A stretch of 20,000 nucleotides of DNA from an uncultured virus (IMG/VR IMGVR_UViG_3300010938_000022) (Duplodnaviria; Heunggongvirae; Uroviricota; Caudoviricetes), in the IMG/VR virus record IMGVR_UViG_3300010938_000022. One strand, 5' to 3'. The notes beneath the pieces were generated by a model. That model worked only from the letters and a program-made list of their open reading frames with translations. It searched no databases and was not told the origin of the DNA. Positions 4,328 through 17,795 of this stretch are shown here, one piece after another; the stretch's first letter is position 1; the number at the start of each line of letters is the position of its first letter. Both the position numbers and the translations under genes were made by a program.

Positions 4328-4873
4328 ATGGATAAAGGTCTAGAACGAGTTAAGCAACTTCTTACTGATTTAGGGCTATTAGACATAAATGGTAATGCTA
4401 GCGGTGTAAGTACTACAGCAATACAAGCCTTATACGATGCAATTGTTAATACTGGAAGAACGCCAGCCGCTGCTGTGACTGATAATGAAGCTTTTAGTAT
4501 TTTATTAAATCAATTTTTAAATTTAGCCAATAGAGATATTAGAACAGATGATTCCACTAACAATGGTGCCGCATCAATTACCTTAAATCCAGCATCACTT
4601 GGAAAGTATGCATATCTAGATATAGATTCTAATTTAGAAATTAGTTTGGACACAACTGGCTCAGAATTTGGTGACGAATTCCATTTAGAATGCCATTTAA
4701 CAGGTTCTGGTGGTTGGACTGTAACTTGGGGGGCAGGATTATCAGCAACTAGTGTTGCAGCAGTAGCCCCATCATTTACTGGTGACAGAACATTAATAAC
4801 CTTTTTAAGAATGCATAGTAATGGTAGCGATAACAAATGGACTATGGTTGCAGCTAAAGAGGTCACAATTTAA
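4328..4873 (+). CDS. putative virion structural / fibre-associated protein
   Basis: 181 aa, Ser/Thr/Gly-rich beta-type C-terminal domain (GSGGWTVTWG...PSFTGDRTLITF...KW); TAATG-coupled to the Ig-domain gene. Confidence 0.55.
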   Translation: MDKGLERVKQLLTDLGLLDINGNASGVSTTAIQALYDAIVNTGRTPAAAVTDNEAFSILLNQFLNLANRDIRTDDSTNNGAASITLNPASLGKYAYLDIDSNLEISLDTTGSEFGDEFHLECHLTGSGGWTVTWGAGLSATSVAAVAPSFTGDRTLITFLRMHSNGSDNKWTMVAAKEVTI

Positions 4874-5880
4874 TGCTATTGCTTGGCCAAATTTTTGTTG
4901 ATCCACCCACAATTACCTCACCACCAGCCGGAGCTTTAACCCCTGGTACTGAAGATCAAGCATATTCAGTAATTATTACTGCAACCGGAACTGGAACACT
5001 AACATTCAGTATTAATGCTGGTACCTTACCAGCAGGAATCACTCTTGATTCTAATACTGGCATTATATCTGGCACTACTTCAGACCCAGCTAATTATTAT
5101 TTTACTGTTAGGGTAACAGATACTTATAACCAGCATCATGATAGAGATTATTCATTAACAATAAATGCAGTATCTCGCCCTGCTAGTACAACGATGTTAT
5201 TGATCGCTGATTCTGATGATACGCTTGACTTGACTGGCTCAGCTATTAATGCATTTCATGAACAAATTCAAGGGCTTGTAGATTTCACCAACGAATTTGG
5301 CGGTACAAAGTGGTCGCGCCAGACAGCCGTGCTTGACGGTAAGAATGTGGCTCGCACAGGCGGCGATTTCATTGAGTACTCAAGCCCAAACACCGCCGAT
5401 GGAAAACTGGACGCATGGATTGCTTCATCTGGCGATGTTGCGCCAGAAGGCTGTCTTGTGTTGGTGTTCTACCCGACAGCTGTTGATAATGGCAAAGCAT
5501 GGCTCAGCAGCCGTGTCAACTTGAACATTGAGGGCGGGATGATCAACGACGGCGAGGATAAGTTCCGTTTCAGAATCCGTAACACGGGCGGTGGTATGGA
5601 AGGGCCATCGGTTGCCTGTGCGCTGAACACGTGGCATTACGCCATCATGCGCTGGAACACAACACACGTTTATCTGTCAATTGACGGCGGCGCGGAAAGC
5701 AGCGTAGCACTGAGCGCGACCGGTGGCTGTAGCAACATGAATAATCGCATAGAAATCCTTGGTGATTCAGGTTCAGGGGAAGGTGCTAAAGGTGACTTCA
5801 TGGAACTCAGCATCATTGATCCTGCTGACATTGCTAATATGATTTCATTCTTGGAATCAGAATATCCAACATTAGCATAA
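4873..5880 (+). CDS. Ig-like (putative Ig / He_PIG) plus LamG/ConA-like domain protein, probable virion adhesin
   Basis: GTLPAGITLDSNTGIISGT...YYFTVRVTD Ig motif; LNTWHYAIMRWN...YLSIDG...KGDFMELSI LamG motif. Confidence 0.8.
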   Translation: MLLLGQIFVDPPTITSPPAGALTPGTEDQAYSVIITATGTGTLTFSINAGTLPAGITLDSNTGIISGTTSDPANYYFTVRVTDTYNQHHDRDYSLTINAVSRPASTTMLLIADSDDTLDLTGSAINAFHEQIQGLVDFTNEFGGTKWSRQTAVLDGKNVARTGGDFIEYSSPNTADGKLDAWIASSGDVAPEGCLVLVFYPTAVDNGKAWLSSRVNLNIEGGMINDGEDKFRFRIRNTGGGMEGPSVACALNTWHYAIMRWNTTHVYLSIDGGAESSVALSATGGCSNMNNRIEILGDSGSGEGAKGDFMELSIIDPADIANMISFLESEYPTLA

Positions 5881-5892
5881 ATGGAGAATAAT

Positions 5893-6189
5893 ATGTTGAT
5901 CAATGTTCGTTGTGGATTAAATTAAACGGAATTTGAAGCTAACTTGGTTGGATCAACAATTACTGTTGATTCAATGTCAGTAGAACAGATTCAGGATTGG
6001 TGTAGATTACATTCTGACTGCTCGTTCGAACACCCAAATCCACCAGAGTAGAAGGTAGGTAAACCGATACGCCAAATCGCAGCGGAATTGAAAGTTGAAA
6101 AAATAAAAGGTGTTGAAGCTGGTAAGACTCTAAATCAGGACTATGGAACACCAAATACCCCTCACTTGTTCCAGACTTGTAAATCTTAA
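5893..6189 (+). pseudogene. interrupted hypothetical ORF
   Basis: GGAG SD and ATG at 5893; 99-codon frame with in-frame TAA (5923) and TAG (6049). Confidence 0.4.
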
Positions 6190-6228
6190 TACTTCCATTC
6201 TTATCAACAACAACCTTTGGAAATTAAC

Positions 6229-6392
6229 TTAATAACGGGCGCTTATCTCCGTTGCCGTTAGGGAAAGCGGAACAGAGGATAGGCCGCCTTGATGTTAAGG
6301 TAAGGGTGAAAACAGCCAAGGGGTGACCCTAGCAACACTCTTGCTTTGCGAAGCTCGGACTTTCCTCGTGTTAACTTCTAACCCGTACTATT
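6229..6392 (-). ncRNA. rnpB: RNase P RNA gene, rearranged and partial
   Basis: GAGGAAAGTCC at 6367-6357(-). AGGGAAAGCGGAACAGAGGATAGGCCGCC...GGTAAGGGTGAAA and the GGG-GTGA-CCC P9 hairpin lie on the + strand at 6260-6332. AGATAAG plus a P2-like 3' strand follows. The 3' P4 strand was not found. Confidence 0.8.
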
Positions 6393-6759
6393 TAGATTTT
6401 TTATCTTTTTTCTTAAATACTTGGTTAATAACTTTGAATAAATCTTTATGTTTAATATCAAAATCAATATAAAACTTTTTAGCCTCATCTGATGACATTG
6501 CGTTACCGCGTTTTTCACCAAGATTATAAATTAAATCTATTAAAGATTCTAAGTCATCTTGGAATACTAATTTGTGTTTAAAAACTAAAAAGCAAATCAT
6601 ATCAACGTAGTAAACAGAATCTAATTTGTCATTTGAAAATTTCTTTTCAATTACTTTCCACAAATCTAAAATTCTCTTAGGATCAGGATCAGTTATCAAC
6701 ATCTTCTCAAAAAGATTTACCAGTTCTTGATGTTCTATTGATTTTAAATGTAGATCCAT
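6388..6759 (-). CDS. hypothetical protein
   Basis: 123 aa ORF downstream of a tRNA. Confidence 0.65.
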   Translation of the reverse strand: MDLHLKSIEHQELVNLFEKMLITDPDPKRILDLWKVIEKKFSNDKLDSVYYVDMICFLVFKHKLVFQDDLESLIDLIYNLGEKRGNAMSSDEAKKFYIDFDIKHKDLFKVINQVFKKKDKKSK

Positions 6760-6769
6760 GATTTATTTT

Positions 6770-6844
6770 TGGCCGCCGCAGGTGGTGCTGCCCCACCGAC
6801 TCTTCCTTATGAGAGAAGCGTTTTACTGTTGAAACTATACGGCG
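6770..6844 (-). tRNA. tRNA with CAT anticodon (elongator Met or Ile2)
   Basis: CGCCGTA/TGCGGCG acceptor, CTTCT-CTCATAA-GGAAG anticodon arm, T-loop GGCAGCA, encoded CCA; paired 1-72 so not a canonical initiator. Confidence 0.85.
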
Positions 6845-6859
6845 ATTAGTTACTTCTAC

Positions 6860-6933
6860 TGGAGCCACTTCGGAGAATCAAACTCCGATCTCTAGCTTAC
6901 GAGGCAAGCGTAATATCATTATACTAAAGTGGC
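6860..6933 (-). tRNA. tRNA-Thr(CGT)
   Basis: GCCACTT/AAGTGGC acceptor, loop CTCGTAA, CCA end. Confidence 0.9.
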
Positions 6934-9625: not shown

Positions 9626-10147
9626 TTATTTTAGATTACTTCTTAATGTTTTCACTAATTCATCAAAATCTTCTACTAAAATTGCATTTTTATAGAATGC
9701 ACATACTACATCAACATTACCTTTGCGCCAAAACCCATCTGGACAACAAACTATTAATAATTTAGTTCCTTTGACATGTAGTCCAAGTTCCATTAACGTA
9801 ATAGGACTTTTTGTTTTAGGATCGAAATACATCACTATCACATCAGAGTCTTCCATTCCTTGCAATTCCCATTCAACTTGCTCACGGAATTGCTTATTAC
9901 CTATTTCTTGTTTCCAGTTTTCATTCCAATCGTCCCTTCGTGGATTTAGAAACATTATATCTTCATTTTTGAATAATTTTACTAGTTTGTCTTGCCATGG
10001 TTCAGCTTTACCCATTTCTATAGAACCGGCTAGAAATATTTTAAACTTCTTAGATCCTTTATAAGAGTTTGGTGCCTTAATTTCTTGCATCTTGTCCTGT
10101 TTACCTTCAAATAAAAGATCATTTAATTTATTATTGATATCGGTCAT
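9626..10147 (-). CDS. nucleoside 2-deoxyribosyltransferase-like protein (Nuc_deoxyri_tr2 type)
   Basis: IFLAGSIEMGKAEPWQ, LNPRRDDW, QVEWEL, SPITLMELGL, CCPDGFWRKGNVD motifs; GGGAG SD. Confidence 0.9.
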   Translation of the reverse strand: MTDINNKLNDLLFEGKQDKMQEIKAPNSYKGSKKFKIFLAGSIEMGKAEPWQDKLVKLFKNEDIMFLNPRRDDWNENWKQEIGNKQFREQVEWELQGMEDSDVIVMYFDPKTKSPITLMELGLHVKGTKLLIVCCPDGFWRKGNVDVVCAFYKNAILVEDFDELVKTLRSNLK

Positions 10148-10298
10148 TTTAATTACTCCCTAAATTTCTATCTCGTAATCGTCACCATGTCCAGCATCCG
10201 CAGCGGGAAGCTGGTGAACTCCACACGAAGGGCAGCAAGTCCGCGCCTTCCTTACTGCCGAGCGATCGTGAGTGATCGCTAACCGGCGTGACAGCCAT

Positions 10299-10784
10299 TC
10301 ACGAAAGCACTGTCTTTGCTATTGGACCGGCGCAGGTACGCCCGCTGTCACGGCGCGCTTCGCGCGCTTCGCGCGCCGCTGAGCCGCGCTCATGCTTCTC
10401 GACCAGCGCATCGTTGCGCTCCTCCTCAGAGAACCACGGCTGTCTAAGTGTTCCACAGCGATAAATATTGCGGCCTTTGCGTGTTATTTTTATTCCTGTC
10501 TTGAGCGCGGCGTGCCCCTCGCTCGAAATGATGAGCAGCGTAAAGGTGTGCTGCTGCTTTGCCATGCCGTAACTATCGTTCGTGATAATGGCTGTGATGG
10601 TTCGTTTTCCGAGGAATTTTGATGACCTGTACGAACCGCCGAATACAGCCTCCTGAAATCTAATTATGTCGCCCGTAACGCAGTCCCCCGTGCAGTCAAT
10701 CCACGCGGTCTCATCGATTTTGCATGACCCAAATGGAGATACCAATTTGGCTCTGGAGGAAATCTTGTTAGAATTGCTTTGCAT
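10299..10784 (-). CDS. GC-rich hypothetical protein resembling a plant SAP/CCCH-associated domain (DUF7699-like)
   Basis: [30 protein letters not shown]...[20 protein letters not shown]; family recalled from memory. Confidence 0.6.
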
Positions 10785-10979
10785 TTGTTATTTGCTAAAT
10801 ATCGGTTATAAAAATTTTCATTTTAACCTATCGGGTTATATTCGCCATTTGAATCAATATTTTCTAAAATTGGTAAACTAACTTCCTTACCAGTTTTTAC
10901 TGAATAAGTTTTAACTTGCTTGATATTTGATACTTTAGCACCTATATCTAGTGGTTGATTTAGAAAATCCATCAATTTT

Positions 10980-12548: not shown

Positions 12549-12720
12549 TGGTGGTCCTGACAATCCTAACGATAGTCCACGGAGTTAATTTATGTCATTT
12601 AAAAAGATTGTGTGTCAGCCAATTCAAGTAAAAGTCATAATGGGCGTGGCGAGCCAGTTTATCATAGCTGGCTCGAAAGCGATTAAGGCATAAAGAACGT
12701 TTATCTCTTAAGGAGCAGGT
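12549..12720 (-). ncRNA. possible tmRNA 3' remnant or other CCA-ending structured RNA
   Basis: Ends TAACTCCGTGGA...GTCAGGAC-CACCA; strong hairpin 12650-12675; T-arm and 5' end absent. Confidence 0.3.
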
Positions 12721-12721
12721 T

Positions 12722-12777
12722 AAAACAACGGATTTCTGCTCCAAAGGCAGACGCGTTACTATTACGCTATGAGGCCA
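12722..12777 (-). pseudogene. 3'-truncated tRNA-Gln(TTG)
   Basis: TGGCCTC 5' strand, D arm and TCTGC-CTTTGGA-GCAGA intact; T-arm 3' half and acceptor 3' strand missing. Confidence 0.75.
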
Positions 12778-12857: not shown

Positions 12858-12941
12858 TGGTGCGCTAGGAGGGACTTGCACCCTCATGCCTTTCGGCACC
12901 ATATTCTAATTTGGCGTGTCTTCTAATTTTACCACCAGCGC
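12858..12941 (-). tRNA. tRNA-Leu (probably TAG; imperfect anticodon arm)
   Basis: GCGCTGG/CTAGCGC-A-CCA, variable arm TGCC-GAAA-GGCA; anticodon arm CCAAATTAGAATATGG appears 1 nt short. Confidence 0.75.
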
Positions 12942-17719: not shown

Positions 17720-17795
17720 TGGTGGAGACGAAGGGATTTGAACCCTTATCCTTCACGATGCCATCGTGCTGCTCCGCCAGTTGAGCTACGTCCCC
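17720..17795 (-). tRNA. tRNA-Ala(GGC)
   Basis: GGGGACG/CGTCTCC-A-CCA with G3-U70, loop ATGGCAT. Confidence 0.93.

Follow-up and report, generated by a model that had tools for sequence, protein, structure and literature searches.

The window analysed here, the whole stretch of 20,000 nucleotides from an uncultured virus of the Caudoviricetes (IMG/VR record IMGVR_UViG_3300010938_000022), is part of a 78,366-base contig, is AT-rich (about 30-35% G+C) and has a phage-like gene content, with 6 of its 21 open reading frames (ORFs) matching PHROG families. The Pfam matches in it are to an HU-like protein, a nucleoside deoxyribosyltransferase-like protein, DUF4326, a SpoU methylase and, below threshold, an HNH-like protein. 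Two islands of higher G+C content (48-50%), at 5201-5600 and 10001-10800, may be recent acquisitions; the former lies inside ORF 4873-5880, which carries a He_PIG Ig-like domain and a weak laminin-G-like match, and the latter covers ORF 10299-10784 (DUF7699). The 10 to 13 tRNA genes of the window are all located on the minus strand. Beside tRNA-Gln, there are odd or decayed tRNA genes, namely an ARAGORN prediction at 12858-12941 (minus strand; Rfam tRNA 28.6 bits against a cut-off of 29) that has no assigned identity and an 'anticodon' of only two bases (ag), and an adjoining partial tRNA match at 12714-12770 (minus strand; model 7-64, 29.2 bits). The tRNA-Ala (ggc) gene at 17720-17795 (minus strand) also gives a sub-threshold tmRNA match (34.4 bits, cut-off 47), which probably concerns the tRNA-like part of that model.

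A fragment related to the RNA of RNase P, the ribozyme that trims tRNAs, is found between two convergent gene sets, the plus-strand genes ending at 5880 and ORF 6388-6759 being read from the minus strand (Table 1). To our knowledge, the RNase P RNA gene has been regarded as strictly cellular. The placement of the fragment at the edge of the tRNA array, made in the initial annotation of this DNA, is correct, with one ORF (6388-6759) lying in between. The product of this ORF has a lysine-rich tail, and in a collection of 5.8 billion clustered proteins it has three relatives (90, 82 and 66% identity), all of them from ENA/Logan, together with an identical fragment of 70 amino acids. Relatives of the locus were sought more broadly. 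The INPHARED phages gave nothing beyond tRNA-sized matches, IMG/VR gave no relative by neighbouring proteins or by exact words of the window, the JGI metagenomes nothing by protein alignment or by a 20-base word of block C, and the GTDB genomes nothing by protein alignment. At 74 IMG/VR loci that encode a nucleoside deoxyribosyltransferase-like protein, no RNase P match was obtained at E<=0.01, and each of these loci shares at most 1 of 20 other proteins with the window. The words of the window pointed to one run only, with a small share (0.11), and to no RNA data set, and among the contigs of three runs examined none spans 6242-6375.

Table 1. Positions of the RNase P-like elements, of the profile matches and of the neighbouring features in the window
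Feature	Positions	Strand	Basis or remark
P3-like mini hairpin, 4 bp, 5-base loop	6370-6382	-	cmscan alignment at P3
Block A: P4 5' strand (6356-6367), then P5/P7 and P8 5' strands	6333-6369	-	nhmmer
Block B: P8 3' strand and P9 hairpin with GUGA loop (6320-6329)	6314-6332	+	restoration gain
Block C: P10/P11 5' strands, J11/12 (ACAGAGGA), P12, J12/13 (GGTAAGGGTGAAA, 6299-6311)	6257-6313	+	RF00010, nhmmer
Block D: end of homology, possibly P13 remnant	6232-6256	-	low-posterior alignment, assignment uncertain
Viral profile match, columns 37-72	6369-6334	-	18.7 bits, E 1.6e-6 (block A score inflated)
Viral profile match, columns 75-151	6233-6312	+	20.8 bits, E 3.7e-7
Bacterial profile match, columns 8-53	6375-6330	-	26.2 bits, E 1.9e-8 (block A score inflated)
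Bacterial profile match, columns 71-125	6256-6312	+	16.1 bits, E 2.2e-5
Terminator-like hairpin, 7 pairs (4 G-C), -9.0 kcal/mol, then TGTTTTCA	6307-6333	-	consensus match
108-base module, 107/108 identical in a 7.8-kb contig of run X1 that is unlike the window elsewhere	6114-6221		contig comparison
123-aa ORF between the fragment and the tRNA genes	6388-6759	-	no Pfam or PHROG family
Nearest tRNA genes, end of the array	6773-6844 (39 bits); tRNA-Thr 6860-6933	-	tRNA search

On the native DNA, the P4 signature that had been read on the minus strand is present there (GGACTTTCCTC at 6357-6367 as written on the plus strand, which is GAGGAAAGTCC on the minus strand). With base 6356 it makes up a 12-mer ending in G (6356-6367, minus strand), for which 2x200/4^12 = 2.4e-5 occurrences would be expected within 200 bases on either strand under uniform composition. 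The P9 hairpin motif GGGGTGACCC (6320-6329) as well as AGGGAAAGCGGAACAG (6260-6275), GGCCGCC (6282-6288) and GGTAAGGGTGAAA (6299-6311) likewise occur at the places and on the plus strand where they had been reported. The Rfam model RF00010 gives a local match on the plus strand at 6262-6356 (model 104-213, covering P10-P12, J11/12 and J12/13) with 21.8 bits, the E-value being 5.7e-5 in 501 bases and 0.0023 over the whole 20-kb window; the high-posterior part of this match is 6262-6312 (model 104-160), comprising the P10/P11 5' strands, J11/12, a short P12 and J12/13. On the minus strand, the same model reaches 7.3-7.7 bits only, with the alignment fitting the consensus over the P4 5' strand and about 20 more bases, and no RF00010 match in the window attains the gathering score (100 bits). 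The P4 helix is incomplete, the 5' strand (GAGGAAAGUCC) being present at 6357-6367 of the minus strand and the pairing 3' strand having no match, with a 9-base blast word (E 2.9) as its only trace in the window. The specificity-domain module, in which J11/12 and J12/13 flank P12, is present at 6262-6312 on the plus strand, opposite to the P4 5' strand, and it lacks the 3' strands of P10/P11. Natively, the RNase P elements are not colinear on one strand, and they become so only after the re-inversion of the sequence in a script.

Two sequence profiles were used besides the Rfam model. The viral profile was constructed from 8 RNase P RNAs of IMG/VR contigs, which came from 18 loci found by the P4 15-mer; a match to RF00010 was present at 9 of the 18, and as the RNAs L002 and L004 are identical in score and coordinates, one of them was used. 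The bacterial profile was constructed from 9 genomic RNase P RNAs retrieved by a 27-base degenerate pattern of block A, namely from 5 Clostridia MAGs, 2 Fusobacterium, 1 Chloroflexi and 1 Dormiibacterota. Since both panels were selected by the block A motif, the scores of block A and a part of the identity figures are inflated, while blocks B-D are unaffected. With nhmmer (E<=50, filters off), each profile gives exactly two matches in the 20-kb window, which lie on opposite strands and are neighbours in the model. Block A is identical at 25 of 27 positions to the viral-contig RNA L002 by blastn, a figure touched by the panel selection, whereas block C, the tRNA-elbow-reading module on the strand opposite to block A, is untouched by it. 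Judged by sequence comparison, both matched pieces are genuine RNase P-derived DNA.

The initial annotation had proposed that two successive inversions (6257-6313, then 6309-6332), when undone, would bring the elements into line. The re-inverted versions were rebuilt from the window coordinates in a script and scored by the sequence profiles, not by the RF00010 covariance model, and the two-step re-inversion indeed yields a single colinear match and is the best restoration among the histories tested. With the bacterial profile, the two-inversion order scores 71.0 bits in one match, the native minus and plus strands 26.4 and 16.3 bits, respectively, and three chosen single inversions 55.5-58.0 bits. 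With the viral profile, the two-inversion order scores 61.3 bits; among 8065 single inversions the highest score is 58.0 bits (6231-6332), and the inversion of block C alone gives 55.2 bits. In a grid of 15,400 double inversions near the proposed breakpoints, scored with the bacterial profile, the maximum was 74.9 bits (6254-6312, then 6305-6332), with the proposed pair ranking 53; the breakpoints are known only to within a few bases. When 6000 double inversions were drawn at random within 6225-6392, 4327 of them gave any match, and none scored above 57.3 bits. With the bacterial profile, the two-inversion order thus stands out as an optimum of its own, exceeding every single inversion by 13-17 bits. 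The setting of block B between blocks A and C in plus orientation brings a gain of 13-15 bits over any single inversion, because block B supplies the P9 hairpin with the GUGA loop and a P8 strand; natively, it lies on the strand opposite to block A, and after block C rather than before it.

A single inversion, either of about 100 bases (6231-6332) or of block C alone (about 6251-6312), would be a simpler history than two events, with block B being a chance look-alike of the P9 hairpin or P9 with its loop flipped, as a hairpin reads as a hairpin on both strands. Inversion of 6231-6332 makes the native matches exactly contiguous in the model (columns 72/75), and on the viral panel the single inversions, with 58.0 or 55.2 bits, remain only 3-6 bits under the two-inversion order. 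On the bacterial panel, however, the distance is larger (55.5-58.0 against 71.0 bits and up to 74.9 in the grid, with random doubles at 57.3 or below), and block B in plus orientation bears the GUGA loop of P9 with its flanks and completes P8 together with the end of block A. A single inversion is therefore thought unlikely, though worth keeping in view, and two inversions are taken as the preferred history.

In the order restored by the two inversions, the last bases of block A and the first of block B oppose each other as the P8 strands, with a loop as in the RNAs L108 and L111 (GCTAACAGCC there), and block B aligns to P8/P9 of L108, L111 and L112. The restored piece spans the match columns 9-128 of 312 of the bacterial profile and keeps 60 of the 65 panel-invariant columns, against 28 in the native minus strand, so that the fragment shows little decay at conserved positions. 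The identity of the restored fragment to the panel members is 0.62-0.78, compared with a pairwise range of 0.65-0.99 (median 0.74) within the panel, these figures being in part inflated by the selection on block A. By local alignment, the closest RNA is that of a Ruminococcus MAG (L112), with 103 of 122 positions identical, followed by L108, L111 and the viral-contig RNA L008 with 100 of 122 each. With the Clostridia class A RNase P RNAs (L112 of Ruminococcus sp., L108 of Clostridiaceae and L111 of Clostridiales), the fragment shares the P4 5' strand, the P8 loop, the P9 hairpin with a GNRA-type loop, J11/12, the very short P12 (4 bp in block C, 6287-6300) and J12/13. It differs from a class A RNase P RNA in having two blocks on the other strand and in lacking P1/P2, P14, P15-P18 and the 3' P4 strand. 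By these resemblances, the donor lineage looks Clostridia-like.

A chance resemblance in unrelated DNA may be considered in view of the short motifs, as in IMG/VR wider RNase P homology is absent from 9 of the 18 loci with the P4 15-mer and from all 11 loci with the 16-mer of block C. Such a coincidence is scarcely credible, however, given two independent significant matches at a distance of 20-40 bases (RF00010 E 0.0023; profiles E 2.2e-5 to 1.9e-8) and the joining of the re-inverted pieces into one alignment of 120 columns with nearly all of the invariant positions in place.

The outer parts of the fragment are less well defined. The P3-like hairpin begins 6 bases past the stop codon of ORF 6388-6759 and is weak (fold -0.6 kcal/mol, z -1.29). 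There is no room for the 5' strands of P1/P2, because only 20 bases separate the stop codon of this ORF from the P4 motif. At the other end, block D aligns to the P13 loop region only in the best-scoring variant of the grid, and its hairpin (-4.1 kcal/mol) has a z-score of -0.19. The native strands are not unusually well folded (z -0.90 and -1.34), a result in keeping with a wreck but equally with other readings. A P1 closing helix appearing in the minimum-energy fold (6377-6390 with 6229-6240) was dropped as the fold is no better than those of shuffles (z -0.90) and as the same bases are able to close a P13-like hairpin instead.

The remainder of the gene is absent from the window. The catalytic core of bacterial RNase P RNA needs the 3' P4 strand, P15 and P18. 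The earlier remark that P15-P18 and the 3' P4 strand are missing has been confirmed over the whole window: neither in the window nor in the restored sequences is there a match past column 139 of the bacterial or column 166 of the viral profile (E<=50, filters off), and cmscan at E<=10 finds no 3' part of the RF00010 model anywhere in the window. In the same 20 kb, the rest of the catalytic domain, that is P1, P2, P5/P15 with the loop that binds the tRNA 3' end, and P18, was not found. The location of the 3' half elsewhere in the window, split off by an insertion, was considered and rejected, with no profile or cmscan match to indicate it. The description of the gene as restorable is not supported, as the re-inversion rebuilds only the columns 9-128 of 312 and, with P1/P2, P14-P18 and the 3' P4 strand absent window-wide, no catalytic core is obtained by it.

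The proposal of a compact ancestor, in which J12/13 would run straight into the 3' P4 strand, fared no better, since, when the breakpoints are shifted slightly, a weak alignment places the bases from 6252 to about 6238 (minus strand) in the P13 loop region. The homology stops near 6230; some 10 bases away, at 6221/6222, comparison with the 7.8-kb contig of run X1 reveals a mosaic breakpoint. A truncation at a recombination junction fits better than a compact ancestor, although the P13 assignment is weak. The gene is cut at both sides, upstream at the end of the ORF, 20 bases before the P4 motif, and downstream next to the mosaic junction. The X1 contig is unlike the window on both flanks of the segment 6114-6221, which lies on the other side of this junction and may be a small mobile or conserved module. 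No significant Rfam match was obtained for it (the best being RsaOG at 6057-6186, 15.6 bits, E 8.5), and a 22-base word from it has no exact match in IMG/VR.

Taken together, the segment 6232-6385 is probably the remnant, no longer functional, of a bacterial class A RNase P RNA gene, two pieces of which were inverted and both ends truncated. It measures about 155 bases, corresponds to roughly the initial two fifths of the RNase P RNA and has lost more than half of the gene. When the order of the blocks is restored, it retains a P3 stub, the 5' strand of P4, the 5' strands of P5/P7, then P8 and P9 as a whole, and further the P10/P11 5' strands, J11/12, the short P12, J12/13 and perhaps a P13 stub. 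The locus is read as the wreck of a gene and as neither a working nor a repairable ribozyme. As its RNA can form neither the P4 helix nor P15 or P18, it would be unable to cleave pre-tRNA, and the phage would be expected to depend on the RNase P of its host. Two features count against a non-functional relic: the nearly undecayed conserved positions could mean that selection is still acting rather than that the breakage is fresh, and two exactly adjoining inversions with two truncations make up a complicated history.

The main rival reading is a secondary use of the remnant, either as a terminator of the minus-strand unit of tRNA genes and ORF, or as an antisense or S-domain RNA which would alter tRNA processing during infection, with a read-through transcript carrying a 57-base antisense of the S-domain module of the host, or a free-standing plus-strand S-domain piece, binding the host RNase P RNA, its protein or pre-tRNAs. 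The terminator-like hairpin (Table 1) is composed of the flipped block B and the flipped J12/13, has 5 T among the 8 bases that follow it, lies where convergent genes meet, 55 bases past the stop codon of ORF 6388-6759, and exists only in the flipped arrangement. The near-intact conserved bases (60/65) would also suit a re-used RNA, and J11/12 and J12/13 are very similar to their counterparts in Clostridia RNase P RNAs, so that a host RNA of that type would base-pair with the antisense copy. However, the number of terminator-like sites (2 in 1500 bases) is not above that in shuffled sequences (0.8 +/- 1.0), the hairpin is ordinary (z -0.93), and the terminator stands upstream of most of the antisense segment, so that a terminated transcript would be devoid of it. 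A re-use of this kind is accordingly regarded as improbable. The stronger proposition, that the flipped arrangement has been kept because it functions, with the minus-strand transcript of the tRNA array ending in, or continuing through, an RNA in which the P4 5' strand in sense is joined to 57 bases in antisense to the tRNA-elbow-reading module of the host ribozyme and which serves as a terminator and/or as an antisense or decoy regulator of the host RNase P, is decidedly improbable. A non-functional relic continues to be the preferred reading.

As for its history, two adjoining segments would have been turned over in place, one of about 24 bases with the P8 3' strand and P9, and another of about 57 bases from P10 to J12/13. 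After these flips, the tRNA-elbow-reading module would read on the plus strand and the P4 5' strand on the minus strand. The inversions may have arisen by template switching during replication or by illegitimate recombination at inverted repeats of 3-5 bases (GTT/AAC, CTA/TAG), and, with hardly a conserved base lost, they are probably recent. Displacement amplification is a source of chimeras with inverted duplications, and the arrangement might in principle be an artefact of amplification or assembly, the true phage gene being colinear and perhaps complete. This would agree with the near-intact conserved bases, as expected of a living gene; moreover, no independent assembly or reads were found over 6229-6392, and the run sharing words with the window has no contig at 6242-6375. 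It is, however, very improbable: the breakpoint repeats of 3-5 bases are far below the word size of an assembler, so that an assembly graph should be unable to flip the segments; the flips are clean and in place, without loss or duplication, unlike the chimeras of displacement amplification; and the absence of the 3' half from the whole 20 kb would be left unexplained.

True inversions in the phage DNA are in keeping with what is described for other genomes. Template switching has been described as a source of small inversions in or near RNA hairpins (PMC5453318, PMC8794818, PMC8755829), and the micro-inversions treated there are likewise small, in place, bounded by very short inverted repeats and situated in or next to RNA hairpins. 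Those studies, however, concern eukaryotic genomes and living RNA genes, while in the fragment the mechanism is deduced from its product and the two events adjoin each other.

Intact RNase P RNAs on viral contigs provide another comparison. In IMG/VR, a complete class A RNase P RNA is encoded at 1501-1797 of L096 (148.8 bits), flanked by tRNA-Asp and tRNA-Ser within a series of 11 tRNA genes, and another at 1501-1840 of L093 (279 bits), between tRNA-Arg and tRNA-Asn; the score of 279 bits is that of L093/L013, and the score of 148.8 bits that of L096/L002 and L004. These genes and the fragment alike occupy a phage-like contig and lie within a same-strand tRNA array or at its end, but the former are complete, colinear and above the Rfam cut-off, whereas the latter is scrambled and truncated, with a 123-aa ORF before the nearest tRNA gene. 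As the genes of L096 and L093 sit inside tRNA arrays, the site of the fragment is an expected place for an RNase P RNA gene. The 'phage-encoded' origin put forward in the initial annotation is plausible, and the fragment might just as well have been captured from a gene of the host; by analogy, its position at the end of a tRNA array would favour a phage gene as the ancestor, since on L093 and L096 complete copies of the RNase P RNA gene are flanked by tRNA genes.

In the literature searched for a phage RNase P RNA gene, no title or abstract describes one, and the phrase 'phage-encoded RNase P' is absent from it. The RNase P RNA pseudogenes of eukaryotes, as treated in the main text of the Bcheck paper (PMC2996960), are likewise non-functional copies or fragments recognised by partial model matches; according to that text, they are dispersed extras beside a working cellular gene, whereas the fragment described here lies in a phage-like genome and carries internal micro-inversions, and the words 'phage' and 'virus' have 0 occurrences each in the main text.

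The value of the fragment consists in its being a marker of the turnover of RNase P RNA genes in phages. It suggests that phage lineages gain such genes or capture them from hosts, here Clostridia-like, and then lose them, and near relatives of the source phage are predicted to be possible bearers of a whole RNase P RNA gene. The fragment also offers a clean natural case of two adjoining micro-inversions within a structured RNA gene, which are recognisable only because the order of the parts of RNase P RNA is known.
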